Assembly (NCBI GenBank): GCA_024275315.1
Contig: JAJRZK010000027.1
Coordinates: forward strand, 68,714-132,713
Direction of reading: 5' to 3'
Source: Nitrospirota bacterium
Lineage (GTDB): Bacteria > Nitrospinota_A > UBA7883
Length of the DNA stretch: 64,000 nt
The notes beneath the pieces are model-generated. The model saw only the letters and a list, made by a program, of their open reading frames with translations, was not told the DNA's origin and ran no database searches. The stretch's first letter is position 1; each line of letters starts with the position of its first letter. The translations under genes were made by a program, and so were the position numbers. Below, piece after piece: positions 924 to 60,101 of this stretch.

Positions 924-2507
924 TTATCCGTCCAGGTGGGCCCTGAGCTTTTCCACCGCGCGGTCGATACCGATCAACGTTATGAAACTTCCCATTTTAG
1001 GCCCCGAAGATTGGCCAAGAAACAGGCGGTACAGCGTGGCGAACCAATCTTTCATTTTCACATCATGTTTTTTGGCTACCTGAAACGCCATGTTCTGCGC
1101 CATTTCGACCGTTATTTCCTCACCGGCGTCACGTAGCCTTTCCAGCTCCGCCAAATAATCGCGTATGGCTTCGTCATACTCGGAACCGGCCGCCTCTTCG
1201 ACCCTGTTGGGCAGGTAAACCTCCCTGTAATAGGTCATCACTTTTTCAATCAGCTCGTCGTAATAGCCGATATTGTCCGCCACTTCCGGCTGGTACTTCA
1301 CCAGGTATTCCCGGACAATAGCGGGGTCCGTCGCCGACAGGGCGATGACCAGGTTGTATATCAGCGAGTAGGTGATAATATTATCACCATACAGGACCGC
1401 CGCGTGCGATCCCTTGGAAAGACGGGCGACGAACGGGACGGGGCTGTCCACCGACTCGCCGTCATACCTGGCCACCAGTTCCAGGTATCCATCAATGATC
1501 TTAGGCAACAGCGGCAACCCCATCTTCTTGGTCTGCTGCGGTTTTATATACATGAAGTAAAGTAGCGAATCGACAGGCCCGTAAGAGAGCCATTGCTCGA
1601 TGGAGACACCGTTGCCGATCTTTTTCGATATCTTCCTGCCGGTTTCGTCCAGGAAAAGCTCGTATTTGAAAAGCTCCGGCGGCTTGCCGCCGATCTCCCG
1701 GACGATTTTCGACGACAGCCTGCCAGACTCTACCAGGTCCTCGCCGTGCATCTCGTAATCAATCCCCAGGGCGAACCACCGCAACGCCCAGTCCACCTTC
1801 CACCCTACCTTGCAATGGCCGTCAAGGACGCTGGTCTCACCCGAGTGACCGCACGCCTGATATTTTCCATCGACGGATATGTCACACACGTATGATACGG
1901 ATCCGTTTTCAATGTCATAACCTGTCGGGCGTGTCGAGTATATCTTGCCGCAATTTTCGCAAACCGGAAAAAACGGGCTCCACGCCGCTCTTTTCTCCTC
2001 GCTTATGGTTTTTACGAACAGCTCCTTGATCTTTTCGTGTTTGCGCAAAATACGGATCAGGGGTTCGTTGAAAGCCCCGGAGCGGTATTGGTCCGTGGAA
2101 GAGGCGAACTCGTATTCAAACTCGAAAGAATCGAGAAACTCGCGCAGTCTCCTGTTCATGTTGTGGGCGTAAGACTCCTCCTCGCCGAAAGGGTCCGGAA
2201 TGGAGGTGAGCGGCTTGCCCAGATGCTGTTTGACCATGTCCCTGTTGGGGATGTTCGAGGGAGCCTCCCGCAAGCCATCCATATCGTCGGAAAAACATAT
2301 AAGGCGCGTATCGGTTTGCGGAGAAATGATCTTGAGCGCCTGGAGGACGAACGACGTCCGGGCTACTTCACCAAAAGTGCCGATATGAGGCATCCCGGAG
2401 GGGCCATACCCGGTTTGGGCGGTTATGGAGGTTTTGCCGAGTCTCTTGCAACGAGCGACGATGCGCCTGGCCTCCACGAAGGGCCATTGCTTGTAATCCA
2501 TTATCAT
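924..2507 (-). CDS. lysK: class I lysyl-tRNA synthetase
   Basis: 527 aa. HIGT (HIGH-like) motif in GYGPSGMPHIGTFGE, zinc-finger-like CENCGK, and overall archaeal/spirochete-type LysRS-I architecture. Confidence 0.88.
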   Translation of the reverse strand: MIMDYKQWPFVEARRIVARCKRLGKTSITAQTGYGPSGMPHIGTFGEVARTSFVLQALKIISPQTDTRLICFSDDMDGLREAPSNIPNRDMVKQHLGKPLTSIPDPFGEEESYAHNMNRRLREFLDSFEFEYEFASSTDQYRSGAFNEPLIRILRKHEKIKELFVKTISEEKRAAWSPFFPVCENCGKIYSTRPTGYDIENGSVSYVCDISVDGKYQACGHSGETSVLDGHCKVGWKVDWALRWFALGIDYEMHGEDLVESGRLSSKIVREIGGKPPELFKYELFLDETGRKISKKIGNGVSIEQWLSYGPVDSLLYFMYIKPQQTKKMGLPLLPKIIDGYLELVARYDGESVDSPVPFVARLSKGSHAAVLYGDNIITYSLIYNLVIALSATDPAIVREYLVKYQPEVADNIGYYDELIEKVMTYYREVYLPNRVEEAAGSEYDEAIRDYLAELERLRDAGEEITVEMAQNMAFQVAKKHDVKMKDWFATLYRLFLGQSSGPKMGSFITLIGIDRAVEKLRAHLDG

Positions 2508-12603: not shown

Positions 12604-12795
12604 TTTCGATTCCTCAATATTAAGTATTCACCGCCCAGTAATTATAACAGGTTGCTGTAACATATCGTGTTGAAAACATATAGTATTGAAAACCTGGAGC
12701 AGATGGAAACAGATGGCGGCTATTTACATCCGGCCCCGACATTGTTACCATCAGTAACAGACAGTCATTACAGGTACTATCATAGTTGGTGATCC

Positions 12796-13659
12796 ATGCG
12801 TAATCATTTGTTCTTTTTGTCCACAGACCCGCACGCCAGCCCTTTTGACGTCAACATAGCCCTCGATTCCGGGTTTGACGTTGTTATTCCCTATCCCATG
12901 GTCACACCCGAAAACACCGAATCGCTCACTCACGACATTATTTTTTCCCGCGGCCCGAAAGGGACCTCGCGCTCCGGTATTTTCATAGGAGGGTCTGATG
13001 TCGCGTTGACGGAAAAAATAGCCGGAACAGTCCGCAAATCCATGTTCGCCCCATTTACGGTATCGACATTTTCGGATCCGAAAGGGGCGTACACCACCGC
13101 CGCCGCGCTCACCGCGAAAACCGGCAAAGCGGCTGGGGGATTGAAAGACAAGCGAGCCATGATACTCGGCGGAACTGGTCCGGTGGGGAGCCTAACCGCC
13201 GTCCTGTGCGCCCGCGAAGGAGCCATAGTGACCATAGTGACCTCCAGAGACCAGGTGGCTGGCGACCGGGTGGCGGCGGAGCTTGAGAAAAATTACTCGG
13301 TGAAAATCGGAGCGGCGTCCGCCAGTACTGAGGATGAAAGGCTCGCCCTGATGAAGAAATCGGACATCGCCATCGCGGCGGTAAAGGCGGGTGTAAAACT
13401 AATGAGCAAAGAAGCTCTTGAAAAAATCGAATCACCCCTGCTTATCGCCGACGTGAACGCGACTCCTCCATACGGGTTCGAAGGGTTGGAACCGAACGAC
13501 GACGAGAAACAGATATCCGGCCACGTGCGCGGCATCGGAGCCCTTGCGACCGGAGCCATCAAGCACAAGGTGGAAACGGGTATTTTCAAATCAATGCTCC
13601 AACAAAAAATCACAGCCGGGCTGGACACAGCGTATGAACTCGCCAAAACCCTGGTCTGA
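12796..13659 (+). CDS. mtdA: NAD(P)-dependent methylene-tetrahydromethanopterin/tetrahydrofolate dehydrogenase (MtdA family)
   Basis: 287 aa. FDVN...GFDVV N-terminal Mpt_N-like motif, TTAAA...KTGKAAGG and GTGPVGSLTAVLCAREGA Rossmann segment, matching the MtdA layout. Confidence 0.7.
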   Translation: MRNHLFFLSTDPHASPFDVNIALDSGFDVVIPYPMVTPENTESLTHDIIFSRGPKGTSRSGIFIGGSDVALTEKIAGTVRKSMFAPFTVSTFSDPKGAYTTAAALTAKTGKAAGGLKDKRAMILGGTGPVGSLTAVLCAREGAIVTIVTSRDQVAGDRVAAELEKNYSVKIGAASASTEDERLALMKKSDIAIAAVKAGVKLMSKEALEKIESPLLIADVNATPPYGFEGLEPNDDEKQISGHVRGIGALATGAIKHKVETGIFKSMLQQKITAGLDTAYELAKTLV

Positions 13660-14374
13660 CCCCACCCCCGTCGACACGGAACTGCTATCGGAACTGAAGC
13701 GCGGTGTGGTCGAATATGACGAGGCGGTTGTAAGATCTGTCTGCCAGACGATAATAGACCGGCGGATGGACGCCTACATGGCTATATTCGAGGGGCTCGT
13801 CCCCGGCATGGAGCAGGTTGGGCGCTTGTATGACGAGCAGGAATATTTTGTGCCGGAGCTGTTGATGTGCGCGGACACTCTATACGCGGGACTGGGCCTG
13901 TTGCAACCCCACGTAATCAGCGGCGGCGGAACTGGAGGAAGCAAAGGGAACGTAATACTGGGAGCCATAGAAGGAGACATTCACGACATAGGAAAAAACC
14001 TGGTGAAAATGGTTTTCAAGATAGCCGGGTTCGATGTGGAAGACCTTGGGAGCGACGTGCCCATCTCCAGGTTTGTAAAAAAAGCCGCCGCCCTGGACAG
14101 GCCCCTGGTCTGCGTTTCGATGATGATGTCGACCTGTTTTTCCCGCGCGAAAGAACTCGTCGAGAGGATAAGGGAAGCCGCGCCGGAAGCCAGGGTGATG
14201 ATCGGCGGATCGATTGTGACAGAGCAAACCGTTGAACAGCTGGGATGCGATGGCACCGCCGACGACGCGCACCACGCGTTGCGCGAAGCGCTTGCGATAA
14301 TGACCTCCGTCGGCAAGCTAGACAAGCTTGGGGAGCCGGACAATGAGCGTGGCAGGCCCGCCCTCGCGGGATAA
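13634..14374 (+). CDS. cobalamin-binding corrinoid protein (B12-binding_2 cap + B12-binding Rossmann domain)
   Basis: DxHxxG motif (GDIHDIGKN), SxL (VSMMMS), GG (MIGGS), and an FVPELLMCAD cap-helix motif. The internal ATG at 13634 overlaps the mtdA end, while the track ORF starts at 13544. Confidence 0.75.
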   Translation: MNSPKPWSDPTPVDTELLSELKRGVVEYDEAVVRSVCQTIIDRRMDAYMAIFEGLVPGMEQVGRLYDEQEYFVPELLMCADTLYAGLGLLQPHVISGGGTGGSKGNVILGAIEGDIHDIGKNLVKMVFKIAGFDVEDLGSDVPISRFVKKAAALDRPLVCVSMMMSTCFSRAKELVERIREAAPEARVMIGGSIVTEQTVEQLGCDGTADDAHHALREALAIMTSVGKLDKLGEPDNERGRPALAG

Positions 14375-15722
14375 GCTGGTGAAAACGCTTGGCGAATTCA
14401 TCGGGACCGGCGAAGCGTCAAAGGAGATAGACCGCGTATACTCCACCCTTGGGATTGACGCCCGATCGCCATTGTCATCGGAGGATTTTGAAAAGATCAG
14501 GGAGGCTCTGGAAAAATCGCTGGGCCGCGAAGTGGGTGGGGCCATGGCCCGGGTCATGACAACCGGCAGGCTGGAGATAAAGCCCGAAGATGTCGGCCGG
14601 TTTTACGAGTCGTTTCACAGGATGCGAAACCAGCTCCTCAACCGCCAGCGCCGCGCCGACAACCTTAACGAGGAGTTGGCCAGGCTCAAGGAGTTGTATG
14701 AAAACGTGAGCTTGTCCATCCCCATAGGCCTATGCTCGGTGGACATGAATTTCGTGATAACCACCTGGAACAGGGAGATGGAAGCGCTGACAGGAAGAAT
14801 GGCCTCGGACACCGTCGGCGCCAAGGTGCCTGATATCCTTCGCGAATACGAACCGATGATGGTAAAAGCCATCCAGCTACGTGAAGTTGTGCGAGAGAAC
14901 AGGTTTCCCGCTGCCGGCCGTGACGGACGCAAAAGAATCGAAAACCTGACGTTGAGCCCGCTGGTGGACAGGTACGATGTTCTGCGTGGTCTGGTGATCC
15001 TTGTCCAGGATATAACCGACCATGTGGAAATGGAGCGAAACATCCTCCAGGCGGAAAAGCTGGCGTCCGTGGGCAGGCTGGCGGCGGGCGTGGCGCACGA
15101 GGTGGGTAACCCGCTCACATCCATATACGCCCTTGTACAGGAGCTGATGGGAGAAGACGGGGAAAACAAAAAGTTCAGAAACGAATCCCTCACGCTGGTA
15201 GCCCAGCATATAGGAAGGATCAACAACATAGTAAACTCCCTGGTGGAGTATTCCAGGCAAAAATCCGTGAAGTTCACACCCTCGTCCGTAAAGGAGATTG
15301 TCGACAAGGCGACACCCCTGCTCAAACTCGACAACAGGGGCCAGCTCATAGACATCGAGATAGACATACAAGAGGACCTGCCCCCCGTGTTGTGTGACCC
15401 GGACCAGATTCAGCAGGTGCTCATAAACCTGCTTTTAAACGCCGCAGACGCGATCAATGGCAAGGGAACCGTCATTGTCAAAGCCGAAAAATCATCCCCG
15501 TCGAGCGTTGCGATTTCCGTGAAAGATCATGGGCAGGGCATGACAGGGGATGTGGCCAAACACGCGATCGCGCCTTTTTTCACCACCAAACCCGTTGGAA
15601 AAGGCGCCGGGCTGGGGCTCTACGTCTGCTACAACATCCTGGAAAACCACAACTCCAGCCTGAAGATACAAAGCGCCCCGGGCAAAGGCGCCAGGATCGA
15701 ATTTGAACTGGAGACCGCCTGA
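14328..15722 (+). CDS. PAS-domain sensor histidine kinase (NtrB/AtoS-like)
   Basis: PAS segment, H-box (AAGVAHEVGNPLTSI), N/G1/G2 boxes (NLLLNAADA, DHGQGM, GKGAGLGL). The start may be the ATG at 14343. Confidence 0.8.
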   Translation: MGSRTMSVAGPPSRDKLVKTLGEFIGTGEASKEIDRVYSTLGIDARSPLSSEDFEKIREALEKSLGREVGGAMARVMTTGRLEIKPEDVGRFYESFHRMRNQLLNRQRRADNLNEELARLKELYENVSLSIPIGLCSVDMNFVITTWNREMEALTGRMASDTVGAKVPDILREYEPMMVKAIQLREVVRENRFPAAGRDGRKRIENLTLSPLVDRYDVLRGLVILVQDITDHVEMERNILQAEKLASVGRLAAGVAHEVGNPLTSIYALVQELMGEDGENKKFRNESLTLVAQHIGRINNIVNSLVEYSRQKSVKFTPSSVKEIVDKATPLLKLDNRGQLIDIEIDIQEDLPPVLCDPDQIQQVLINLLLNAADAINGKGTVIVKAEKSSPSSVAISVKDHGQGMTGDVAKHAIAPFFTTKPVGKGAGLGLYVCYNILENHNSSLKIQSAPGKGARIEFELETA

Positions 15723-16759
15723 TGTACGCACCCCGAATACTCATAGCGGACGATGAAGAGACCATCTGCGCCGTGTTGCAAAGAGTGCTGGAAAAAGATG
15801 GCTATCGTGTGGACATTTGCCACGATGGCGACACGGCCATAAAGATGGCCTCCCAGACCGTGTACGACCTCGTGCTGACCGACCTGAAAATGCCCGGAAG
15901 CGACGGGCTGGAAGTTCTGAGAAAAGTGGCGGGGGGAACCACCGGAGCCGCCGTAATGCTCATGACGAATTATTCCACCGTGGAGACCGCCGTGGAAGCC
16001 ATGCGCCAGGGAGCGCGGGATTACATCATAAAACCGTTCGTTCACGACGATATCAGGATATCCGTCGCCAACACCCTGCGCGACACGCGGCTGGCGCGGG
16101 AAAACAAGCTTTTAAAAGAGGAGCTCAACAGGTCGATCAACCTGGAGGAGTTTATCGGGTCGTGCCCGAAAATAATGGACGTGTTCAAGTTGGTGAACAA
16201 AGTGGCTCCCACAGATTCGAGCGTCCTGGTCATCGGGGAGAGCGGCGTCGGCAAGGAACTGATTGCAAGAGCCATACACCGCCATTCCCAAAGAGCAAAC
16301 GAGCCTTTCGTTCCGGTAAACTGTGGAGCCCTGCCTGCAGAGCTTATGGAGTCGGAACTGTTCGGCCACGTAAAGGGAGCCTTCAGCGGCGCGGTGTCCA
16401 GCAAGCCGGGCCTGTTCCAGGAGGCCCGGGGAGGAGCCATTTTCTTCGATGAAATCGGAGAGCTTCCACCGGCGTTGCAGGTGAAGTTGTTACGAGTGTT
16501 ACAGGACCAGGTGATCCGGCCAGTCGGGTCCAGCAAATCCTTCAAGTGCGACGTAAGGATCATCACCGCCACGAACAAAAAGCTCGATATCGAAGTCGAA
16601 AACAAGACATTCCGCGAAGACCTGTATTACAGGATCAACGTGCTTACGATAGAGTTGCCCCCTTTAAGAGAGCGCGGCCAGGACATAGAGGAGCTGGCCG
16701 TACATTTCCTGAAAAAGCACGCTTCCAGGCTGAACCGGAACGTGGAAAGCATCCAGTAG
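15722..16759 (+). CDS. sigma-54-dependent response regulator (REC + AAA+), N-terminal 345 aa ending at an in-frame TAG
   Basis: REC (ILIADDEE...LVLTDLKMPG), Walker A GESGVGKE, GAFSGA, ESELFGH, Walker B. The TAG at 16757-16759 is in frame with the downstream HTH ORF. Confidence 0.8.
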   Translation: MYAPRILIADDEETICAVLQRVLEKDGYRVDICHDGDTAIKMASQTVYDLVLTDLKMPGSDGLEVLRKVAGGTTGAAVMLMTNYSTVETAVEAMRQGARDYIIKPFVHDDIRISVANTLRDTRLARENKLLKEELNRSINLEEFIGSCPKIMDVFKLVNKVAPTDSSVLVIGESGVGKELIARAIHRHSQRANEPFVPVNCGALPAELMESELFGHVKGAFSGAVSSKPGLFQEARGGAIFFDEIGELPPALQVKLLRVLQDQVIRPVGSSKSFKCDVRIITATNKKLDIEVENKTFREDLYYRINVLTIELPPLRERGQDIEELAVHFLKKHASRLNRNVESIQ

Positions 16760-16765
16760 GAAACG

Positions 16766-17095
16766 ATGAGGTTGATAAAATCATATCACTGGCCCGGAAA
16801 CGTTCGGGAGCTGGAAAACGTCATGGAGCGAGCGTTGATACTGGAGGAGTCAACCAGCGTTACGCCCGCGTCTCTGCCGGACAAGATCATCCGTCCAAGT
16901 GACGACACACAGGCCGAATCGATAGAGCACAGGCTCTCTATCGACGAGTATATTAAAAGCTTCATAAAAAGGTACGAAAACGTCTACCGCGAAAAGGAAA
17001 TCGCCAACATGCTCGGTATCAGCCGCAAATCGCTGTGGGAAAGGCGTAAAAAATGGGGAATGGAAAGAACTAACGCAAAGCGGGAGAACGTGTGA
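16766..17095 (+). CDS. C-terminal part ([10 protein letters not shown] + Fis-type HTH) of the same sigma-54 regulator, downstream of the in-frame stop
   Basis: [23 protein letters not shown] and [20 protein letters not shown], in the same reading frame as 15722..16759 (codons read IQ-TAG-ETMRLIK). Confidence 0.65.
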
Positions 17096-17838
17096 GGGCA
17101 AACAACACCAAGGTCGCCCTGGTGACAGGCGCCGCGCGCCGCCTGGGGGCGTGTGTCGTCCGGACCCTGGCGGAGCATGGGTACAAGGTGGCCATACATC
17201 ACCGCAACGCAAAGCAGGAGGCGGACGAGCTGGCGCAGGTTGTCAATGTAAAACAGGGAGAAAACATGGCGGCCGTTTTCATGGCCGACCTGTCGGAAAG
17301 AACCGCCTGCCAGAAGCTGGTGCGATCGGTCGTAAACACATTCGGAAGGCTCGACCTGCTGGTCAACAACGCCTCGTTTTTCGCAAAAACGCCATTGGAC
17401 ACCATCACCGCCGAGGATATCGAAAAGAGCCATTCCATCCACGTGATGGCTCCTGCGATGATGTCTCTGGCGGCGATTGAAAGCTTGAGAAACAGCGAGC
17501 CCGGACACATAATAAACATGCTGGATATATACGCCGATTATCCGAGGAAGGATTTTATGGCGTACACGATTGCCAAGGCGGGACTGAAATCATTAACAAA
17601 ACAACTGGCGCTGGAGCTGGCTCCGGATATACTTGTAAACGCCGTCGCGCCAGGGGCGATACTTAAGCCTGCGCAAACGGAGGACGCGAGCGGTTTCAAC
17701 AAAGCCCTGGACCGGATTCCGCTCAAACGATTCGGAACGGCCGGTGATATCAGCGCGGCTGTAATGTTTCTTTCGCAGGCGGAATATATAACGGGCCACA
17801 CCATCGTGGTGGACGGCGGCCGGTCACTATACATTTAA
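17092..17838 (+). CDS. SDR-family oxidoreductase, pteridine-reductase (PTR1/FolM)-like
   Basis: GTG start overlapping the upstream stop (GTGA). [16 protein letters not shown] and YxxxK motifs. 248 aa. Confidence 0.78.
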
Positions 17839-20069: not shown

Positions 20070-20557
20070 ACCGGTCGATTCGCGTAGGTAACGGGTTTGA
20101 TACGCACCGTCTTGTGGAAGGCCGTCCATTGATTCTCGGAGGCGTCAGGATCGATCATCCACTGGGGCTCAAAGGACATTCGGACGCAGACGTACTCACC
20201 CACGCCGTGTGCGACGCGTTGCTCGGGGCGGCCTGTCTCGGCGACCTGGGGCAAATGTTTCCGGACACGGATGAGCGATACAGGAACATATCCAGCTTGA
20301 AACTGCTGGCCATGGCAAACGACCGCATTACCAGCGACGGATGGGGTGTGATCAACATAGACGTGACAGTTGTAGCGCAGGCGCCCAGGATCGCGCCTCA
20401 TTCAGGCTCCATGCGCGACAACATAGCGCAAGCCACCGGAACCAGCCCCAGACAGGTCTCCATAAAAGCCACCACAACGGAAAAGCTGGGGTTTACAGGC
20501 CGGGGCGAAGGGATCGGGGCGTGGGCCGTGGCGCTTATAGGAAAAATCGAGCCTTGA
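20066..20557 (+). CDS. ispF: 2-C-methyl-D-erythritol 2,4-cyclodiphosphate synthase
   Basis: MNRSIRVGNGFDTHRL...GHSDADV...DVTVVAQAP are canonical IspF motifs. The real start is the internal ATG at 20066 of track ORF 19784..20557. Confidence 0.9.
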   Translation: MNRSIRVGNGFDTHRLVEGRPLILGGVRIDHPLGLKGHSDADVLTHAVCDALLGAACLGDLGQMFPDTDERYRNISSLKLLAMANDRITSDGWGVINIDVTVVAQAPRIAPHSGSMRDNIAQATGTSPRQVSIKATTTEKLGFTGRGEGIGAWAVALIGKIEP

Positions 20558-21999
20558 ACAATCCAAGAGTACGATTCGCCCCCAGCCCATCCGGAGCGGC
20601 GCACATAGGGAACGGAAGAACGGCGCTGTTCAACTGGCTGTACGCCAGGGCCAACAGCGGCAAGTTCATCGTGCGCATAGAAGACACCGACCAGGCAAGA
20701 TCATCCGAAACATCGGAGCGGCTGGTTTTAGATACGCTGTCCAGGCTTGGGCTCCGCTGGGACGAGGGGCCGGATATCGGTGGTCCGTACGGCCCGTACA
20801 GGCAATCGGAGCGCCAACACCTGTACGCCAGGGCTGTGCGGGAGCTGATTGAAACGAACGACGCGTACCCGTGCTACTGCTCCCCCCGGGAGCTGGAAAT
20901 GGAGCGCAAGGCGTCGATCGCGGCGCGTAAACCGCCCCGTTACTCCGGCAAGTGCAGGAAATTGACAGTCGCCGAACGGTCCGCCATGGAAAAAGGTGGC
21001 ATCAGGCCCGCCATCCGCTTCAAGATAAAAGGCGGATCAGTCGAGTTCGACGACGCGGTGCGGGGCGGGGTTTCTTTCGATACGGCCGATTTCGGGGATT
21101 TTATCATAATGCGTTCAGACGCCACGGCGTCGTATCTTCTGGCCTCCGCTGTCGACGATATGGAGATGCGGATAACGGACGTGATCCGCGGCGAGGATCA
21201 CCTGTCCAACACGCCGATGCAGATACTGATCATGCGCGCGCTGGGGCACGAACCGCCACGCTACGCGCACCTGCCGATGATACTCGGGCCCGACGGAAGT
21301 AAACTTTCAAAACGTCATGGATCGGCCGATATCCACGAGTTGCTCGAAGCCGGATACCTGCCGGACGCCATCAATACCGCCATGGCGATGCTGGGATGGT
21401 CGGGAGTGGATGGGAATGAGGTGGAAACGCTGGAGGCGATAGCGGCTAAATTCGACCTGGGCGGGGTATCGCGTTCCCCGTCGCGATACGATAAAAAACG
21501 GCTGGATAACCTCAATTCCAGGGCGTTGCGCTCGATGGATACTGGCGAATTGCTCTCCCTCGTCAGTCCGGCCCTGGAGCGGTCGGGGTTTCCGATCGAC
21601 AGGTTCGGTGAGGAGCATATGCGCGCGATGATCGAAACGGCGCGGGAGGGCGCCAACACGCCAGCGGACGTCGTGTCGCATATGGGCCAGTTCGCCGGCG
21701 CTGTAAAACCTGATGACGCCACGTTGACGATACTCAAAGCGCCGGAAACATCGCAAGTCGCCGACGCGCTGAAAAAGGCGTTGTCGGGACTGTCCACTAT
21801 CGATACGGAGAAATACAAGTCTGTGATAGAATCGGTCTCTTTGCAAACCGGGCTGAAAGGCAAACGCCTGTATCAACCTGTCCGGGCCGTCATCACCGGA
21901 GCCGCCAGCGGGCCAAAGCTTGCGGATATATTCACCATACTCGGCCCGGAGGAATTATTGAAACGGATAGACAAACTAGAAGCGCTGGAGAGAGCTTGA
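20554..21999 (+). CDS. gltX: glutamyl-tRNA synthetase (paralog 1)
   Basis: TTG start overlapping the ispF stop (TTGA). RVRFAPSPSGAAHIGNGRTALFNWLYA (HIGH), KLSKR (KMSKS-like). ~481 aa. The track ORF starts far upstream inside ispF. Confidence 0.85.
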   Translation: MNNPRVRFAPSPSGAAHIGNGRTALFNWLYARANSGKFIVRIEDTDQARSSETSERLVLDTLSRLGLRWDEGPDIGGPYGPYRQSERQHLYARAVRELIETNDAYPCYCSPRELEMERKASIAARKPPRYSGKCRKLTVAERSAMEKGGIRPAIRFKIKGGSVEFDDAVRGGVSFDTADFGDFIIMRSDATASYLLASAVDDMEMRITDVIRGEDHLSNTPMQILIMRALGHEPPRYAHLPMILGPDGSKLSKRHGSADIHELLEAGYLPDAINTAMAMLGWSGVDGNEVETLEAIAAKFDLGGVSRSPSRYDKKRLDNLNSRALRSMDTGELLSLVSPALERSGFPIDRFGEEHMRAMIETAREGANTPADVVSHMGQFAGAVKPDDATLTILKAPETSQVADALKKALSGLSTIDTEKYKSVIESVSLQTGLKGKRLYQPVRAVITGAASGPKLADIFTILGPEELLKRIDKLEALERA

Positions 22000-34662: not shown

Positions 34663-37600
34663 TCAATAGTTTTCAAATACGCGTTCTTTGCCGCGGTATT
34701 GCTCCGCCTGGTACATGAACGCCTCTAGACGTGTCTGAGAGTTAGTCTCCTCGACACCGTCATAGTCAAGGTTGAGCCAGGGTATGTTGTCATGGTCTTC
34801 CCGAAGTTTTTTCGAGATAGCGGCGACTATAGTGCCTGGCATACAGGAAAAAGGCATAATGTTTACAACGCCATCCAAACCCTTCCGCGCAAAATCCACC
34901 GCTTTGCCCAGGCTCAATATCGCCTCGCCCTCGATCGTGTCGCGCATGTAAGGGCTTGCGTATTCGAGCACCTGGCCGATCATCGGATCTTCGGCGCTCG
35001 CCAGGGTCTCCTTGAATGGCTCCAGCAGTTTTCGCTCATCCTTTTTCTGGATTCTATCCTGCATGTAACCTTTAATGAGGTCAAGATATTTTTTGTCGAT
35101 CCTGGACTTGTTAATATACCGGTCCGTGCAGTACATTATCCATTCCCCGATAGGCGCAAGCCACACTTTGCCACCCAGATTCTCTATACGCTTTATGATC
35201 TCCTGGTTGCCAAACGAATGGCTCCGCATGAATATTTCGCCGACAACGCCTATGCGCGGCCTGGTTTTTCCATCCACCTGTATAGCCTGAAACCTGTCTT
35301 GTATCTCCCATACGTAATCAAATAACAGCGAGCTGTCTTTTTCCACCAGTTCGGCCGTTTTTTGTAGGCATTGCTCATACACCCTGTCCGTTTCGCCCGG
35401 TCGCAACTCGTGCGGGCGGGTCTCGTGCAACAGCTTCGCGAGAATATCCACCACAACGACACCACGCCAAGCGGACCTGCGAAACCGCATCCCAAAATCC
35501 ACACTGTTACCATAGCCACTGTCCGCGTCTGGAGAAAGGAGCGGAACATTGCCAAACCCCAGCTCGTCTAGAATGATCCTCTGCACCCTTTGATACTGGC
35601 CAAACCGGCAGGGACCCTGGGTGGTGGGCATGAAAAAGGCTGACCTGTCCGGATCGAACCCTGTCTCCCGCGCTTTTTTGATTATGTCTCCGGTGGTGAT
35701 GGCAAACGGGACACATTCCTTGCCGGAGGAGAATTTCAGGCCGATATCCAGGGACTCCCGATCCGACTTGGGCAAAAGCACAGCCGGCACACCGGTTCCC
35801 CGCAGAGCGGCCGCGATAATGTGACCATGGTCGCACATATATGGGAGATAAAGAGTCCTGCAACGACCCTTGACGATATCTCCCCTAACGACCCCGGCGC
35901 CGACGCCGTTCCCGTTGTATCCGCCGGAACCGGCGCCATTGACGCCGGTTTTCCCCAGGATATTCCGGACGACCACGGACGCGGTTTCACAGTTCTCAAG
36001 GCTGTCGAAAAACGCCTCCAGCCTGGTAATCGCCCCGGCGTCGGCTGCGTGCTCGTCTATCTCCAGGCGCAGGCATGGTTTCCCCCCCAGGGCTTGCGTC
36101 AAAATATGCTCGATAAACGAATCCGGTCCGCACTTGAAGCTGTATATAAAAATGGCGTCCAGACGGTTGTTTTTGCCCACCTGCTGCGCGGCGGAGATTA
36201 TCCTTTGGCCCGATCGCCAGTACATGTCCGGATACTTGTCCCAAGCGGGTCCCTCGGCAAGATCGAGAAAATCGATGGGTACAGCAATTTTACCCATCTC
36301 CCGCAGTTTGCGAGGCAGGTCCAGGTTTATCCCGGAATCACAGCCATTGTAGGGTCTGCTTAGTATCACCACAGGCTTTTCCCCACGGTCCTGGGCTTGC
36401 CTGAGAACTTCCCTTCCCCGGTCCCGCATGGACATGTAAAACGCGTCCTGCGCTTTTCTGGCCTTGGCGACGGCTCTTCTTATGTCTTTCAACGGTATCC
36501 CGAACTTGTCGCCCAAAACGGTCTTCAGCTCCCTGGCGACATCCTGGTCACCGCGTTGAAAAAAAATGGAAGGCGCAAGCAAATCCACGCCGGCGCCGGC
36601 GAGGTCTATCGCGGACTGGATGATGTGCGATATCGACTGCACCAGCGGGCACGTGTAACTTTGCACAAACATGCTCTTCACGGAATTCATGGTGATGACG
36701 GATGGGAGAAAAATAAAATCGACACCCTTTTCTATCAGGTCGATTACGTGCCCGTGCATGATCTTTATGGGGAAACACGTCTCCGCCTTTACATGCTGTA
36801 TAGAATCCCGAATCACCGCCGGTGACGTCTTGCCGGACAGCACCACCTCAAACCCCAAATCTTCCAGGAGAGTCTTCCAGAAGGGGAACAGTTCGTAAGA
36901 CATAAGGCTCCTGGGCACACCCACCGCGGCCCTGGTCCCCGATGGCCGTTTTACCTTCGTCGACACGGAACCGAACATCATCTTCTCCCGTTCGACGAAA
37001 AGATCGACGGGACGATCGGCCTTTTTCTTCTTTTTCTTGTCTCCCTCGAACAGCTCGCAACGGGCGCCATAGTAATGTGCGTCCTCGCCTTCAAACTTGA
37101 TCCGGCTGACATTGCACACATTGTCGCAAGCCTTGCACTCGAACGTGGTGACCTTGTATTTCCTGTTCTGCAAGTCAAACCCCAGGAACCTGGAAGGCTC
37201 TGAAGGGCCATCCCGCAAACGCTTTTTCATGGCGATAAGAGCCGCTCCTATCGCTCCTGTTACGTCGTGGTGAGGCGGGACGGTGATTTTCTTCCCGGTG
37301 ACGTTTTGAAAAGCCGCAACCACCGCCCTGTTCCACGCCACCCCTCCCTGGAACAGGATGTTGGAGCCGATCTTCCTGTCTCCCACCACCTTGTTGAGGT
37401 AGTTCGATACAATCGAATAGGCCAGCCCCGCGGCCAGATCCTGCTTGTTCATCCCTTTCTGCTGGTTCGACACCAGGTCCGACTCGATGAAGACCGTGCA
37501 TCTGTCGCCGAATTTGCCCGGCGCTTTCGCATCAAAAGCCGTATTGGCGAAATCCTTTTCGATATCAAGGTCTATCTTCTCCGCCTGCTCCTCGATAAAC

Positions 37601-38964
37601 GACCCGGTGCCCGCGGCGCATACCTTGTTCATTTCAAAATCAACCACGGCGCCTTTGTCGATGGAGACGTATTTGCTGTCCTGCCCGCCGATCTCGAAAA
37701 TCGTATCCACTTCCGGATGAAAATGTATCGCCGCCGTCGCCTGGGCGGTTATTTCATTGCGGACGGTGTCGGCGCCGATAAAGTCGCCGATCATATACCG
37801 GCCCGATCCGGTGGTTCCCACCCCGAGTACGTTGACCTTATCCCCTATTTCCGACCCTATCTCCATCAGGCCCCTGGTGACCGCCTCGATGGGGCGGCTC
37901 CTAGTCCTGATGTATCGTCTCGCGATAACTCTCATGCTCTCGTCGATGGCGACCACGTTTGTGCTCAGCGACCCTATATCCACACCGATAAAACATCCGA
38001 TGTTTTTGTGGCCGTTCAATCTGTTCGTATGTGTGTCATACATCTCGTCATTCATCTCGCCGGTCAGGGGGCTCATGGAGCTTCTGGCGGCGTTGCGCAC
38101 GGCTCGATAGTTCTCAAGCCCACCGGTCCCCTTGAACCTGAAGCCGTTCTGGTTCTCCATGGAAATCAGCGCCGCGCCTATGGCGCCCATTACCGCCCGC
38201 TCCGGCGGGATGAATAACTCCTCTGCCGGCAATTCGAACTGTTCCGCCATGGCCTGCACCACGCCCTGGTTCCAGGAGACCCCACCGAAAAACGCGACTG
38301 GTTTGTTAATCTCCCTGCCCATGCACACGTTGCTCTTGTATGACCTCGCCACCGCGTGGCACAGCCCCGCCACTATATCCCACACCGGAGTTCCGATCTG
38401 TTGCAGGTGGATCATGTCGGATTTTGCGAAGACGGAGCACCGCCCCGCGATCCGCGGCGGGTTCTTGGATTTCAGCGCCAACTGGCCAAACTCGCCTTCT
38501 ATATCCACCCCGATTCGCTTGGCCTGCTGGTCCAGAAAACTGCCTGTGCCGGCGGCGCACAGATTGTTCATGGAAAAATCGGCGAGAACCGTCTTTCCCT
38601 CGACCTCCTTGAACATGAGCATCTTGGAGTCTTCTCCGCCCATCTCTATGAGTGTCCTGATGTTTGGGTACAAAGAGGATACGGCCCTGGAAAATGATAC
38701 GATCTCGTTGGCGAACTCCCCCCCCACCAGAGAAGCGACCAGTTCACCCGCGCTACCGGTGACGCCGATGTTCATGACGCGGGAGCCTTCGGCTTTTCCC
38801 AGCAGTTCGCTAATCGTTTTTACCGTGGCCGGAATAGGCTCGCCATACGATCGTCTGTAGGAATGGGATAAAACAGAGCCACTAGAATCGACAATGGCTC
38901 CTTTAACCGAAACAGAGCCAATATCAAGACCAATCCATACACCACCGGTTTTGTCCAAGCCCAT
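34663..38964 (-). CDS. fused 2x BadF/BadG/BcrA/BcrD-type ATPase (CoA-substrate-specific enzyme activase) + 2-hydroxyacyl-CoA-dehydratase-like domains (1433 aa)
   Basis: Two acetate/sugar-kinase-fold ATPase repeats (IGLDIGSVSVKG... and IGVDIGSLSTNV...), each with cluster-ligand CAAGTGSF motifs, followed by HgdB/HgdC-like dehydratase domains. YjiL/YjiM-type fusion architecture. Confidence 0.85.
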   Translation of the reverse strand: MGLDKTGGVWIGLDIGSVSVKGAIVDSSGSVLSHSYRRSYGEPIPATVKTISELLGKAEGSRVMNIGVTGSAGELVASLVGGEFANEIVSFSRAVSSLYPNIRTLIEMGGEDSKMLMFKEVEGKTVLADFSMNNLCAAGTGSFLDQQAKRIGVDIEGEFGQLALKSKNPPRIAGRCSVFAKSDMIHLQQIGTPVWDIVAGLCHAVARSYKSNVCMGREINKPVAFFGGVSWNQGVVQAMAEQFELPAEELFIPPERAVMGAIGAALISMENQNGFRFKGTGGLENYRAVRNAARSSMSPLTGEMNDEMYDTHTNRLNGHKNIGCFIGVDIGSLSTNVVAIDESMRVIARRYIRTRSRPIEAVTRGLMEIGSEIGDKVNVLGVGTTGSGRYMIGDFIGADTVRNEITAQATAAIHFHPEVDTIFEIGGQDSKYVSIDKGAVVDFEMNKVCAAGTGSFIEEQAEKIDLDIEKDFANTAFDAKAPGKFGDRCTVFIESDLVSNQQKGMNKQDLAAGLAYSIVSNYLNKVVGDRKIGSNILFQGGVAWNRAVVAAFQNVTGKKITVPPHHDVTGAIGAALIAMKKRLRDGPSEPSRFLGFDLQNRKYKVTTFECKACDNVCNVSRIKFEGEDAHYYGARCELFEGDKKKKKKADRPVDLFVEREKMMFGSVSTKVKRPSGTRAAVGVPRSLMSYELFPFWKTLLEDLGFEVVLSGKTSPAVIRDSIQHVKAETCFPIKIMHGHVIDLIEKGVDFIFLPSVITMNSVKSMFVQSYTCPLVQSISHIIQSAIDLAGAGVDLLAPSIFFQRGDQDVARELKTVLGDKFGIPLKDIRRAVAKARKAQDAFYMSMRDRGREVLRQAQDRGEKPVVILSRPYNGCDSGINLDLPRKLREMGKIAVPIDFLDLAEGPAWDKYPDMYWRSGQRIISAAQQVGKNNRLDAIFIYSFKCGPDSFIEHILTQALGGKPCLRLEIDEHAADAGAITRLEAFFDSLENCETASVVVRNILGKTGVNGAGSGGYNGNGVGAGVVRGDIVKGRCRTLYLPYMCDHGHIIAAALRGTGVPAVLLPKSDRESLDIGLKFSSGKECVPFAITTGDIIKKARETGFDPDRSAFFMPTTQGPCRFGQYQRVQRIILDELGFGNVPLLSPDADSGYGNSVDFGMRFRRSAWRGVVVVDILAKLLHETRPHELRPGETDRVYEQCLQKTAELVEKDSSLLFDYVWEIQDRFQAIQVDGKTRPRIGVVGEIFMRSHSFGNQEIIKRIENLGGKVWLAPIGEWIMYCTDRYINKSRIDKKYLDLIKGYMQDRIQKKDERKLLEPFKETLASAEDPMIGQVLEYASPYMRDTIEGEAILSLGKAVDFARKGLDGVVNIMPFSCMPGTIVAAISKKLREDHDNIPWLNLDYDGVEETNSQTRLEAFMYQAEQYRGKERVFENY

Positions 38965-39784: not shown

Positions 39785-41608
39785 GTGACGGAAACATTCA
39801 AACAAGCGCTGGAAAAACGCCTGCTGGTATGTGACGGCGCTTTCGGCGCCATGCTCTATTCCAAGGGTGTGACAATCAACCGGTGCTACGAAGAGCTGAA
39901 CCTGACCCAGCCCGACCTGGTGCGCGAACTCCACCGGGACTATATAAAAGCCGGCGCCGACATTATCGAGGCCAATACTTTCGGCGCCAACAGGTTCAAG
40001 CTCCGCCATTTCGGCCTGGAAGACAAGGTAAAACAGATCAACAGCACCGGGCTGGCGCTGGCGCTGGAGGAGGCGCGGGGTTCCGCGTTTGTCGCCGGGT
40101 CGATCGGCCCGCTGGGGTTGAGTGTGGAGCCATACGGTAAAATCACCATCTCCGAGGCGAGCGACGCTTTTCGCGAGCATGGCGCAGAGCTTGTGGAAAA
40201 CGGGGCGGACCTGATTATATTCGAAACATTCCATGATCTTAACGAGCTCAAGGCCGCCATAAAAGCCATCAGGTCGTTGTCGTCGGACATTCCCATAGTC
40301 GCCCAAATGGCGTTTGAAACCGACGGTAAAACCGTGCATGGCGCCACACCTTTCCAGGTGGTCAATGCGTTGGAGCGTCTGAATATAGACGCGGTCGGGG
40401 CGAACTGTTCCGTTGGTCCCGCCGACATGCTCGACGTGGTAAAAGCCATGGCCTCGTCGACGCGCCTTCCCGTGTTCGCCCAGCCGAACGCCGGCATGCC
40501 CAGGGTTGTGGACGACCGGCTGATATATCTAACCACACCCGAATACCTGCTGACGTATGGCAAACGGTTTATCCGCGCCGGGGCGCGGGTTGTGGGGGGG
40601 TGTTGCGGAACCACCCCTGCGCATACGGCCGCGCTGAAGGGGGCCGTGATGGCGTTGTCCCCTTCCAGGGTCGAGGTGAGCGAGACACCTCAAACAAAAG
40701 GCCGGGAGGAGATAAAGGAAACCCCACGAAAAGATAAAACCCCGATGTCCAAAAAATTGTGCGAGGGGAAATGGGTCCAGTCGGTGGAGCTTCTGCCCCC
40801 GAAAGGCCCGGACGCCACCCGTGTGCTGGGGCACGCGAAAAAGCTCAAGGAAGCCGGGATAGACTGCCTGAACATACCGGACGGTCCCCGGGCGATGGCG
40901 CGGATGAGCCCCATGTCGCTGGCGCTCCTGTTCAAAAACGAAATTGGTGTGGAGCCTATATTGCACTATACCTGCCGCGACAGGAACCTGTTGGGAATGC
41001 AATCGGACATCCTTGGAGCCCACGCTGTTGGTATTAAAAACATCCTTGCAATCACGGGCGACCCGCCGAAACTCGGCAATTATCCCAACGCGACCGCGGT
41101 ATACGACGTGGACGCCATTGGGCTGGTCAAAATGATCCGCAACCTTAACCGTGGGCTGGACATTGTCGGCAATGCGATCAACGGCCAGACGGCGATCCAT
41201 ATTGGTGTGGGAGTAAACCCGGGAGCCTCCAATATAGAGGAAGAGATCAGAAGGTTTGAATTGAAGGTGGAATCCGGGGCGGAGTTTTGCATGACCCAGC
41301 CCATTTTCGAGACAGAGAAGCTTTTCAGTTTTCTGGACAAGATCGAGCGATTCCGCATCCCGGTGCTGGTGGGTATTCTTCCGCTGGCCTCGCTTCGGTC
41401 CGCCGAGTTTCTGCACAACGAAGTCCCCGGAATGCAGGTACCGAAGAAAATTCGTGAAAGCCTGAAACGCGCCGGGGATGATGCTTTGGAAACGGGTGTG
41501 ATGATAGCCCGGGAGGCGTTGGAAGAGGCCAGGGGGCGTGTGCAGGGTGTGTATGTGATGGCGCCGGTGGGAGGCGCCGACACGGCGCTTAGGCTGCTTG
41601 GGGGATAA
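39785..41608 (+). CDS. bifunctional homocysteine S-methyltransferase (MetH N-terminal Hcy-binding domain) / 5,10-methylenetetrahydrofolate reductase
   Basis: Hcy-binding barrel with zinc-ligand Cys (GANCS...GGCCGTTP), a linker, then a MetF TIM-barrel (ILHYTCRDRN, ILAITGDPP). No B12-binding domain. Confidence 0.85.
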   Translation: MTETFKQALEKRLLVCDGAFGAMLYSKGVTINRCYEELNLTQPDLVRELHRDYIKAGADIIEANTFGANRFKLRHFGLEDKVKQINSTGLALALEEARGSAFVAGSIGPLGLSVEPYGKITISEASDAFREHGAELVENGADLIIFETFHDLNELKAAIKAIRSLSSDIPIVAQMAFETDGKTVHGATPFQVVNALERLNIDAVGANCSVGPADMLDVVKAMASSTRLPVFAQPNAGMPRVVDDRLIYLTTPEYLLTYGKRFIRAGARVVGGCCGTTPAHTAALKGAVMALSPSRVEVSETPQTKGREEIKETPRKDKTPMSKKLCEGKWVQSVELLPPKGPDATRVLGHAKKLKEAGIDCLNIPDGPRAMARMSPMSLALLFKNEIGVEPILHYTCRDRNLLGMQSDILGAHAVGIKNILAITGDPPKLGNYPNATAVYDVDAIGLVKMIRNLNRGLDIVGNAINGQTAIHIGVGVNPGASNIEEEIRRFELKVESGAEFCMTQPIFETEKLFSFLDKIERFRIPVLVGILPLASLRSAEFLHNEVPGMQVPKKIRESLKRAGDDALETGVMIAREALEEARGRVQGVYVMAPVGGADTALRLLGG

Positions 41609-44641: not shown

Positions 44642-45580
44642 TCAGATATGCGCGACATCCTCGGCGGATCGTTTCTTGACGTGTGTGGCGGCGGCCACCT
44701 TTATCTTGCTGGACAGAATCCTGCGGACCGTATCCAACCCCTGGTACAGCTTCAGCTCCTCCTTGTCCACCACGTCCACGGCGCCTATTTCATTCGCCCG
44801 GAGCCTCATTTTGCTCCCTTTCTGAGCGACGGAGCTGACTATGATCACAGGCTTGGGAAAATGGATCATCAGTTTTTTCAGAAACGAGACACCATCGAGC
44901 TTGGGCATGATAATGTCCAGCGTTATCACATCCGGGTTGAGCTCTAATATTTTCGACCGGGCGTCGTACGCGTCCTCGGCCTGGCCGACAACATGGATTT
45001 CATCATCCGTCGAAAGGGCTTTTTGAATGATGCCACGAACGGTGTAGGAATCGTCCACGATTAGCACCTGGATTTTGCGGCCCGCCAGGTCTTTTTTCTT
45101 CGCCTCAAGCTGTAATGTAAGCTCCGATTTCTGTATCATCCGAACTTCCACTTCGCCCGTATGGTTATCGAAGAAAATCTTCATGCCAGAGTCGCCCCCG
45201 GTCCTGTTTCTCTTTATGGCGATCCCGTGAGATTTGAGCAACTCCAGGGCTATGGCTATGTTTCGCTGGCCTATCTCGAACCCCGTGTTCAGGTGCCCGA
45301 CAACGGCGCCTCCTCCATAAACGCTCGCCTCCAGGTTTCTTTTGTTCGGGTCAACCTTGAGCATGGAGGAGATGAGCTTGTTGGTGGAATAATCACCGTA
45401 TTTACCCACCATGCTCTGGTTCCCGCCCGTGGGGAGCATAAAATGGTTCATGCCGCCGAATTTCCCGCTTTTGTTATAAAGACACACCGCGACACACGAC
45501 CCGAGCAGGGTCGATATGATGGCAGGTTGTTTGGTCAAGGCGATTTCACCCGGAAGAACAAACAGCTTCTTTTTTTCCAT
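44642..45580 (-). CDS. CheD (chemoreceptor glutamine deamidase) fused to a C-terminal CheB-type receiver domain
   Basis: N-terminus matches CheD with catalytic Cys/His context (LLGSCVAVCLY, MNHFMLP). C-terminus has KIQVLIVDDS...DVITLDIIMPKLDG...VIIVSS, closely matching the CheB N-terminal REC domain. Confidence 0.75.
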   Translation of the reverse strand: MEKKKLFVLPGEIALTKQPAIISTLLGSCVAVCLYNKSGKFGGMNHFMLPTGGNQSMVGKYGDYSTNKLISSMLKVDPNKRNLEASVYGGGAVVGHLNTGFEIGQRNIAIALELLKSHGIAIKRNRTGGDSGMKIFFDNHTGEVEVRMIQKSELTLQLEAKKKDLAGRKIQVLIVDDSYTVRGIIQKALSTDDEIHVVGQAEDAYDARSKILELNPDVITLDIIMPKLDGVSFLKKLMIHFPKPVIIVSSVAQKGSKMRLRANEIGAVDVVDKEELKLYQGLDTVRRILSSKIKVAAATHVKKRSAEDVAHI

Positions 45581-45681
45581 TGTCTATATTTCCCGTATTT
45601 ATGATAAACAGATTTCAGCGATATGTTTATTGTATCCCAAGGACGAATCGCTCCGCTCCGGGCCGAATAACGGTTTTTGTA

Positions 45682-48543: not shown

Positions 48544-49275
48544 TCATGGCGCGGGACGGGTGGATTCAAACGCCTCCCATACCATCGGCCAGCCTTTCTT
48601 CGCAATCCGGGCCATTATCACGGCATAGTCCCTGATCTCTTTTTGCGCGTCCGGAGCCAGCCGCAACGAAAAATAGTGAAGCAGGTTACGCATGTCGATG
48701 CTCCAAACGATCTGGGTATACGCCGAAACCGGCAACACTACCCTGGCCTGCTCCCTGGCCACGCCAAGCTCCATCAGCTGGCCATACACGCTGTACGCAT
48801 GATGGTTGAGCCCCTCAATCAGCGTCCTGGCCCTGCTGGAAACATCGTCGGGAAGCGTATCGCCGCTCATCTGCTTGTTGGTGGAGTGCTGTGACCGTAC
48901 GTCATCCTGGCCTGGAACATAAAACAGGTCGGGGCATTCGGTATATCTGAAAGACCACTCGTTGAGCGACGCCGTGCGGTGCCGCACATGCTGGCGCATG
49001 ACGAAAATGGGGAGCCGGATGCGAAACGTAAGCTGGATCATCTCGAACGGGGATGTGTGCCGATCCCGCCACAGCCTCAGTATGAGCCTCCTGTCCGCTT
49101 CCTCGGACTTGCCATTGTCCCGCTGGTACGATGTCCTGGCGGCCCTGGCTACGGTGTTGTCCGACCCAAGGTAATCGACAAGCTCCACCTCGCCGGCTTC
49201 ATGCACCTTGTATACCTTGTTAAGCTCCTCCTCGGCGCCAGGGCTTATCGGACGGCTCGTCTCAGACATTGTCAT
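48544..49275 (-). CDS. thyX: FAD-dependent thymidylate synthase
   Basis: ThyX motif RHRTASLNEWSFRY (RHRxxSxxxxSxRY). 243 aa. Confidence 0.9.
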   Translation of the reverse strand: MTMSETSRPISPGAEEELNKVYKVHEAGEVELVDYLGSDNTVARAARTSYQRDNGKSEEADRRLILRLWRDRHTSPFEMIQLTFRIRLPIFVMRQHVRHRTASLNEWSFRYTECPDLFYVPGQDDVRSQHSTNKQMSGDTLPDDVSSRARTLIEGLNHHAYSVYGQLMELGVAREQARVVLPVSAYTQIVWSIDMRNLLHYFSLRLAPDAQKEIRDYAVIMARIAKKGWPMVWEAFESTRPAP

Positions 49276-59890: not shown

Positions 59891-60101
59891 TAATATCCAT
59901 CCGGAACTCGGCCGGGGCTCGCCGCTGTCAACAATTTGACACAAGCGCCCATACCCGTCGCCCTGACCTGAGATATAACTCCATTAATATTAAATTGTTA
60001 ACTCGATCGCACGTCTTTCCGGAGTCGCGGCGCAAAACCGGCCACTCCGGCACGGGACTTGCTCACTTTACAGTCAGGAACAGTTGACTTTGGACAGGTA
60101 A

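Follow-up and report, generated by a model that had tools for sequence, protein, structure and literature searches.

Our analysis of a 64,000-nucleotide stretch of contig JAJRZK010000027.1 from a Nitrospirota bacterium (assembly GCA_024275315.1; the whole stretch is called the window in the following) points to a signalling operon of four genes that is specific to the Nitrospinota and makes up the first part of a five-gene block at positions 12796-17838. In this operon, a B12-binding corrinoid protein together with an MtdA-type dehydrogenase would provide the input of a histidine kinase, and the response regulator would act elsewhere in the genome and repress its own operon. We assign a probability of about 0.45 to this reading, because all contacts between the proteins and the signal itself are deduced. 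Judged from the sequences, the unit probably serves to sense B12 or one-carbon status in a manner not described before. We favour a sensory unit because three clade-exclusive components (the dehydrogenase clade, the corrinoid-protein clade and the N-terminal domain of the kinase) travel and are translated together, because the methyltransferase context and residues of the corrinoid protein have been lost and because the operon itself is not a sigma-54 target.

Gene layout and conservation in the Nitrospinota

The block consists of five co-directional genes:

12796-13659, forward strand: g1, homolog of MtdA/MtdB-type NAD(P)-dependent methylene-tetrahydromethanopterin/tetrahydrofolate (H4MPT/H4F) dehydrogenases, 287 amino acids (aa)
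13634-14374, forward strand: g2, stand-alone corrinoid (B12-binding) protein, 246 aa, starting 26 nucleotides (nt) inside g1
14343-15722, forward strand: g3, soluble PAS-HisKA-HATPase_c histidine kinase, 459 aa
15722-17095, forward strand: g4, NtrC-type sigma-54 response regulator (REC, AAA+, HTH_8) with an in-frame TAG at 16757-16759
17092-17838, forward strand: g5, FolM/PTR1-type pteridine-reductase-like short-chain dehydrogenase/reductase (SDR), 248 aa

An initial annotation of this region had described the same five genes on the same strand, at or very near these positions. It had the dehydrogenase gene abutting the corrinoid gene, but the two overlap by 26 nt. The overlap it reported between the corrinoid and kinase genes holds and amounts to 32 nt, with the kinase start corrected to 14343 by ortholog alignment, which is also the start called by NCBI. 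The junction of g3 and g4 is a 1-nt overlap, and g4 and g5 indeed share the four nucleotides GTGA. The boundaries of g2, g3, g5 and of the split g4 are exactly those of the NCBI gene calls.

Related loci were gathered by exact-protein look-ups, by a search across genomes with one genome for each species, and by screening metagenomes with the N-terminal domain of the kinase, and the window proteins were compared with all collected loci by tblastn. About ten distinct Nitrospinota lineages share the gene order g1-g2-g3-g4 without change, with protein identities of 50-71%. Wherever a homolog of g1 with the Mpt_N domain reaches at least 54% identity and has enough flanking sequence, the corrinoid, kinase and regulator genes follow, and the contigs carrying such homologs are all labelled Nitrospinota except for one (L008), which is labelled Nitrospirae. 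Among about 35 more distant Mpt_N homologs (35-52% identity), found in NC10/Methylomirabilota, Asgard archaea, methanotrophs and Betaproteobacteria, none has these partners. The clades of g1 and g2 and the N-terminal domain of the kinase occur nowhere outside the unit. The initial annotation had allowed for the corrinoid gene regularly standing next to a methyltransferase in other genomes; instead, it lies between the dehydrogenase and kinase genes in every ortholog and never beside a methyltransferase.

A conserved order could also reflect mere inheritance, the genes being neighbours through Nitrospinota synteny without any functional coupling. Most lineages indeed share a wider syntenic region far beyond the five genes, which extends from RibF and a gene resembling lysylphosphatidylglycerol synthases to PBP1A, IspF, GltX and CysS, and the carriers all come from one phylum. 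However, a 752 kb Nitrospinota contig (L005/L010) has kept the four-gene block although both flanks are different, with a type II secretion/PilZ/MacB block on one side and a convergent TerC gene on the other. Besides, the 26-nt start-stop overlap of g1 and g2 is conserved in five lineages, and the two following junctions are mostly overlaps of 1-32 nt, with short gaps in L005 (1 nt between g2 and g3) and L001 (38 nt between g3 and g4). Adjacency without coupling would further have to explain why the three clade-exclusive components never occur apart from the unit and why a dedicated promoter-operator region is conserved ahead of g1, and we therefore regard it as very improbable. In the relocated block no SDR gene follows the regulator gene, so only four genes make up the core. 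The SDR gene stands outside this core as a regular companion that can be missing, and would usually be co-transcribed with it.

The corrinoid protein, the dehydrogenase and the kinase as a candidate input module

The corrinoid protein g2 comprises the Pfam domains B12-binding_2 (2e-18) and B12-binding (3e-21) and no other domain. In the PDB, it comes closest to MttC (7xcn, 5e-34) and to the Moorella corrinoid protein 1y80. Direct reading of the protein reveals the DxHxxG motif (EGDIHDIGK) and a cap helix DEQEYFVPELL of the methyltransferase-partner type, which bears out the earlier observation of EY in place of the CarH-type Wx9EH. The residues for cobalamin binding (D115, H117, G120, S162 at the SxL position and GG191-192) are invariant within the clade. 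At the same time, g2 stays below the NCBIfam cutoffs of the methyltransferase-associated models (TIGR02370, 153 vs 215 bits; MtgC, 156 vs 310; MtbC, 121 vs 350). Members of the clade share 55-90% identity, and the next homologs, at about 50%, are found in URO-D/MtrH/RACo methyltransferase clusters, one of which also holds FolD. URO-D, MtrH and RACo are absent from the window and from all clade loci examined, and the statement of the initial annotation that a cognate methyltransferase is missing proved correct for the 64 kb window and also for the flanks of the related loci (no URO-D, MtrH or MttB/MtaB-like gene).

Several positions with 87-100% conservation in the outgroup carry other residues in the g2 clade: cysteine for T168, arginine for G171, alanine for N183 and variable residues for P194. 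All members of the clade have Cys168, which aligns without gaps with the serine (Ser810) of the His-Asp-Ser ligand triad in a fragment of MetH. The N-terminal extension of g2 is likewise clade-specific. Since its first residues are encoded within the g1 overlap, their conservation does not constitute independent evidence. In one groundwater Nitrospinota locus (L009, 10767-11508), the corrinoid gene appears as two overlapping frames with an apparent frameshift, either an assembly error or a decaying copy.

These features are consistent with a descent of the B12 protein from methyltransferase-cognate corrinoid proteins, whose methyltransferase partner would since have been lost. In its present context it may act as the cofactor-bearing input of the kinase, probably docked on the private N-terminal domain of g3, in an arrangement in which a stand-alone B12 protein controls the neighbouring kinase as H-NOX proteins do. 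The kinase itself matches PAS, HisKA and HATPase_c in Pfam. Its N-terminus is formed by a helical domain of about 75 aa and a coiled coil (nt 14343-14714), which are conserved within the clade. This domain has no Pfam match; a profile search of a 5.8-billion-sequence database returned one partial match, and a full HMMER scan of 1.84 billion proteins returned one representative cluster.

B12-binding domains are known light sensors, and histidine-kinase partners have been predicted for them elsewhere (PMC8717448). In addition, some of the carriers originate from the marine water column, including Tara samples. A photolabile alkyl-cobalamin on the corrinoid protein might thus report light to the kinase, comparable to CarH/LitR, AerR or the photoglobin-B12 bundles. 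We see this as a remote prospect: the cap belongs to the methyltransferase-partner type, the CarH model scores 1e-5 compared to 6e-46 for MtgC, there is neither a MerR domain nor a photoglobin, other carriers are groundwater and hydrothermal-vent genomes, and the dehydrogenase would be left without a role.

In the dehydrogenase g1, the Mpt_N domain (4e-30) spans positions 1-80 of the 81 in the profile and precedes a Rossmann NAD(P) domain, and residues 4-284 of the enzyme align over the full length with the MtdA crystal-structure sequences 1lu9 and 6tge (1e-42). Its assignment to the MtdA family is thereby upheld, and the domain assignments of both g1 and g2 agree with those proposed initially. 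In an alignment with 101 outgroup sequences and MtdA, the g1 clade keeps all family-invariant residues (R52, GG65-66, PF86-87, D94, TT100-101, GTGPVG, D219, N221, GA248-249 and K256), and because of this retention the enzyme looks catalytically intact. NCBI holds a protein identical to g1, and the closest named relatives come from Nitrospinota metagenome-assembled genomes. More distant relatives in NC10 bacteria are part of fae-mtd-SDR-fwdDBA clusters; homologs of fae, fwd, mch and FolD were found neither in the window nor in the approximately ten clade loci. We also considered the SDR as an ancestral partner of mtd and rejected this idea, as the SDR behind the NC10 mtd gene is only 27-30% identical to g5 and does not have the TGX3RXG motif. 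Among longer Mpt_N proteins (P0077, P0079, P0089, P0115), no Rosetta-stone fusion with a B12 or kinase domain was detected. A contig labelled Nitrospinota (L022, 1930-3294) carries fae followed by a 43%-identical mtd in nearly the layout of the NC10 locus L015, and is likely to be an NC10 contig assigned to the wrong bin, or else a further H4MPT-type gene set of the canonical kind.

As a partner of the B12 protein, the co-translated dehydrogenase might function as a 'trigger enzyme' that ties the signal to NADP(H) and the one-carbon-pterin pool, and the four-gene system would then report B12 and one-carbon-folate status. Such sensing would matter to these organisms, since cultured Nitrospinae/Nitrospinota strains are B12 auxotrophs that rely on the B12 of other microbes (PMC8026999). 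A more far-reaching version, possible though somewhat doubtful, is that we are dealing with a new class of cytoplasmic input, in which a methyl-transfer corrinoid protein with a triad cysteine and an MtdA-type dehydrogenase convert the state of bound cobalamin into sigma-54 transcription in B12-auxotrophic Nitrospinota. The sensed state could be the B12 supply, the redox state of the cobalt or an upper ligand, for example nitrite or nitric oxide. The last option would be of relevance because the phylum includes nitrite oxidisers; in the ocean, nitrite is oxidised mainly by Nitrospinota.

Promoter, putative operator and the response regulator

Two elements were identified upstream of g1:

12723..12751, forward strand: sigma-70-type promoter from a promoter scan (TTTACA, 17 bp spacer, TACCAT, with TG before the -10 element)
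12744..12758, no strand: perfect dyad GTTACCATCAGTAAC (GTTAC-N5-GTAAC), a putative operator that covers the -10 element

When the approximately 100 nt upstream of g1 are aligned for ten loci, the mean identity is 48%, and the only invariant blocks are TTTAC and GTTAC..AT..GTAAC. Across loci the -10 element takes the form TAC(N)AT, with the same spacing to TTTAC in 10 regions. The dyad is the sole perfect match to this pattern in the 64 kb window, and each scanned clade locus has exactly one perfect dyad, positioned 40-55 nt upstream of g1. Further copies that could serve as regulon sites were found neither in the window nor in about 130 kb of related loci. Just upstream of the promoter, at 12660-12705, lies a direct repeat (GTTGAAAACATAT / TATTGAAAAC), which is kept in the 90%-identical locus L053 and not in more distant lineages. 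A cobalamin riboswitch or any other Rfam RNA was not detected in the window or in seven related loci.

The position of the dyad suggests that the operon is probably under repression at this site. Apart from the regulator g4, which is NtrC-type by Pfam (REC, Sigma54_activat, AAA_lid_14 and HTH_8) and NCBIfam, no DNA-binding protein goes with the dyad in every context, and the helix-turn-helix segment of g4 is nearly invariant across orthologs. For these reasons we infer that g4 binds the dyad and exerts negative autoregulation, repressing its own sigma-70-type promoter through GTTAC-N5-GTAAC over the -10 element. There is precedent for such a mode of action: NtrC represses the sigma-70 promoters glnAp1 and glnLp via dyads that lie over them. 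The AAA+ loop of g4 reads GAFSGA, and GAFTGA in L053.

A sigma-54 promoter for the operon was considered and rejected, as no site resembling TGGCAC-N5-TTGC is present upstream of g1 in nine loci. Likewise, no such promoter was found before or within the operon, and sigma-54-like matches in the window (19) fall below the number expected by chance (27). With no sigma-54 promoter at the operon, the targets of the activator are to be sought elsewhere; the phosphorylated regulator would switch on sigma-54 promoters at other places in the genome. The window also encodes a second sigma-54 activator, without a receiver domain (56032-57228, forward strand). About 2.8 kb beyond it lies the best sigma-54-like promoter of the window (CGGCACGGGACTTGCT, 60048-60063, forward strand), 39 nt upstream of the gene for an 873-aa tetratricopeptide repeat protein (60102-62723). 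This activator and the promoter at 60048 probably form a separate regulon, with no GTTAC dyad nearby.

Folate context, weight of the evidence and comparison with known systems

For the SDR g5, the initial classification as a pterin-reductase-like protein is well founded: the best NCBIfam match is PRK09135 (263 bits vs a cutoff of 288; next family 219), the top PDB matches are PTR1 (2c7v) and FolM (5tgd), and on direct reading its motif TGAARRLG fits TGX3RXG, the signature of FolM and PTR1 in the FolM literature. The window also encodes ThyX (48544-49275, reverse strand; Pfam Thy1, 4e-53), and organisms with ThyX often have no FolA and use a FolM-type reductase. Together with ThyX, g5 is more simply read as the FolM-type dihydrofolate/pterin reductase of the organism, with a presumed housekeeping function. 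A further gene related to folate metabolism, 22 kb from the corrinoid gene, encodes a YitJ-type fusion of homocysteine S-methyltransferase and methylenetetrahydrofolate reductase (39785-41608, forward strand; NF006396, 728 bits vs a cutoff of 453).

In this context, the whole operon might be a regulated metabolic unit, in which dehydrogenase, corrinoid protein and SDR are enzymes of folate/pterin one-carbon metabolism and the two-component system rides in the operon or controls it. For instance, the dehydrogenase could replace FolD, the SDR could play the part of a FolM-type dihydrofolate reductase, and genes elsewhere could encode the methyltransferases, or the split methionine synthase, that the corrinoid protein would serve. 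The fully retained set of family-invariant dehydrogenase residues fits well into this picture, as do the FolM/PTR1 signature of an SDR whose gene overlaps the regulator gene in most lineages, the FolD gene in one outgroup corrinoid cluster, and the unconventional organisation of folate one-carbon metabolism to which ThyX and the YitJ-type fusion point. However, no methyltransferase, activase or pterin-binding partner is encoded in the 64 kb window or the related loci, and the corrinoid protein scores below the cutoffs and has lost residues that are invariant in its methyltransferase-cognate relatives. Moreover, a sigma-54 activator cannot drive the sigma-70-type promoter of the operon, the SDR is dispensable in L005/L010, and the private N-terminal domain of the kinase occurs only alongside these partners. 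We consider a purely metabolic role unlikely. The initial annotation had left the choice between a sensing accessory of the kinase and a C1/pterin metabolic unit under two-component control. Of these two, sensing is now favoured because the unit survived relocation, the kinase has its private N-terminal domain, the corrinoid residues were lost and a sigma-54 promoter is missing from the operon itself, while the SDR has moved to the periphery.

Several points weigh against the proposed signalling operon. All lineages belong to one phylum, and a single relocation separates functional linkage from inherited synteny. A conserved and apparently active dehydrogenase would equally be expected of a plain metabolic enzyme, and the translational coupling of SDR and regulator genes, from which one lineage alone departs, lends the operon a folate/pterin flavour. 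On the regulatory side, no regulon target was found in the window or the related loci, and the dyad might be the site of a regulator whose gene lies elsewhere. With a pLDDT of 41, a single-sequence AlphaFold2 prediction for the kinase was of too low quality to base a fold search on. The basis of the reading is genome comparison, from which the contacts between the proteins, the ligand and nature of the signal, the phosphotransfer steps and the interaction of the regulator with the dyad are all inferred. Finally, the TAG at 16757-16759 splits g4 into pieces of 345 aa and 109 aa.

The initial annotation was right in placing a PAS kinase and a sigma-54 regulator here, but it overlooked this stop codon. 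The g4 orthologs are uninterrupted (456-457 aa) and have proline or alanine at the corresponding position; L053, whose regulator is 94% identical, has CCG (proline). Compared with L053, synonymous and non-synonymous substitutions number 61:19 before the stop and 25:10 after it, without decay downstream. The substitution patterns are alike on both sides, which points either to an error in sequencing or assembly or to a nonsense mutation that arose very recently. If the TAG is real, g4 would be left here without the end of the lid and the DNA-binding domain. Reading the TAG as pyrrolysine is unlikely, given the proline or alanine in the orthologs and as no Pyl-type methyltransferase is present.

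Some further features of the window lie apart from the operon. Two genes belong to the glutamyl/glutaminyl-tRNA-synthetase family (tRNA-synt_1c; 20341-21999, forward strand, and 49370-50785, reverse strand), and a class I lysyl-tRNA synthetase is encoded at 924-2507 (reverse strand). At 34663-38964 (reverse strand) we found a 1433-aa fusion of two BcrAD/BadFG ATPase domains and DUF2229, of the CoA-enzyme activase type, in a genome that most likely belongs to the Nitrospinota, and at 44642-47841 (reverse strand) a chemotaxis-like pair, in which a CheD-receiver fusion (312 aa) adjoins a CheA-type kinase (719 aa).

In the literature, we found no paper that reports this four-gene unit, and none that connects Nitrospinota with an MtdA-like dehydrogenase or a corrinoid protein with a two-component system of the sigma-54 type. 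B12-binding modules connected to two-component systems have been predicted before in another architecture, namely photoglobin-B12 (PMC8717448). If the proposed sensing holds true, the operon would represent a protein-based way to monitor B12 or the one-carbon pool, distinct from cobalamin riboswitches and CarH-type light regulators, and it would be a clear example of signalling that has co-opted a methyl-transfer corrinoid protein along with a C1 dehydrogenase. If the metabolic alternative is true instead, the phylum would possess an unconventional folate toolkit of MtdA-like dehydrogenase, FolM-like reductase, ThyX and YitJ-type fusion. The conserved promoter-operator and the defined four-gene unit make the signalling reading testable.

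Compared to known systems, g1 resembles MtdA/MtdB of methylotrophs and NC10 bacteria by its full-length homology (43-52% identity to the NC10 enzymes). In contrast to these, it has no fae, fwd/fhc or mch neighbours, overlaps a corrinoid gene and is followed by a two-component system. With FolM and PTR1, g5 shares the SDR fold family, the TGX3RXG motif, the best matches and the presence of ThyX in the same window, whereas it falls slightly under the equivalog cutoff and is translationally coupled to a response-regulator gene. Like NtrC of the NtrB/NtrC pair, g4 combines REC, AAA+ and HTH_8, and a dyad over the -10 element of its own sigma-70-type promoter fits negative autoregulation. Unlike there, GTTAC-N5-GTAAC is unrelated to the NtrC site, and it is a putative operator identified from sequence.

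The H-NOX proteins with HnoK/HahK, in which a stand-alone cofactor sensor controls the adjacent histidine kinase, offer the model for the gating proposed here, as in both cases a small cofactor-binding protein is encoded beside a soluble kinase. The differences are the corrinoid instead of haem, the second, enzymatic partner, and a derivation of our system from genome comparison. The methyltransferase-cognate corrinoid proteins (MttC, MtgC, MtaC, TIGR02370, 1y80) have the same two-domain architecture, DxHxxG, SxL-position serine and GG motifs and an EYF(V/L)PELL-type cap, and g2 is 45-53% identical to bacterial members. It differs from them in its sub-cutoff scores, the N-terminal extension, the exchange of threonine for cysteine at the position presumably equivalent to MetH Ser810, and a neighbourhood without MT1/MT2 methyltransferase or RACo. 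With CarH/LitR, AerR/PpaA and the photoglobin-B12 bundles, the operon would share the use of a cobalamin module as regulatory input. Here, CarH/LitR are set apart by the MerR domain and Wx9EH, both missing in g2, which reaches only 24.6 bits with the CarH model against a cutoff of 400. B12-dependent regulators as such are already known, and links between B12-binding modules and two-component systems have been predicted. What is distinctive in the Nitrospinota unit, compared with these regulators and the photoglobin bundles, is the methyltransferase-type ancestry of the corrinoid protein, the triad cysteine, the obligatory pairing with a dehydrogenase and a sigma-54 activator as output, in a setting free of photoglobin.

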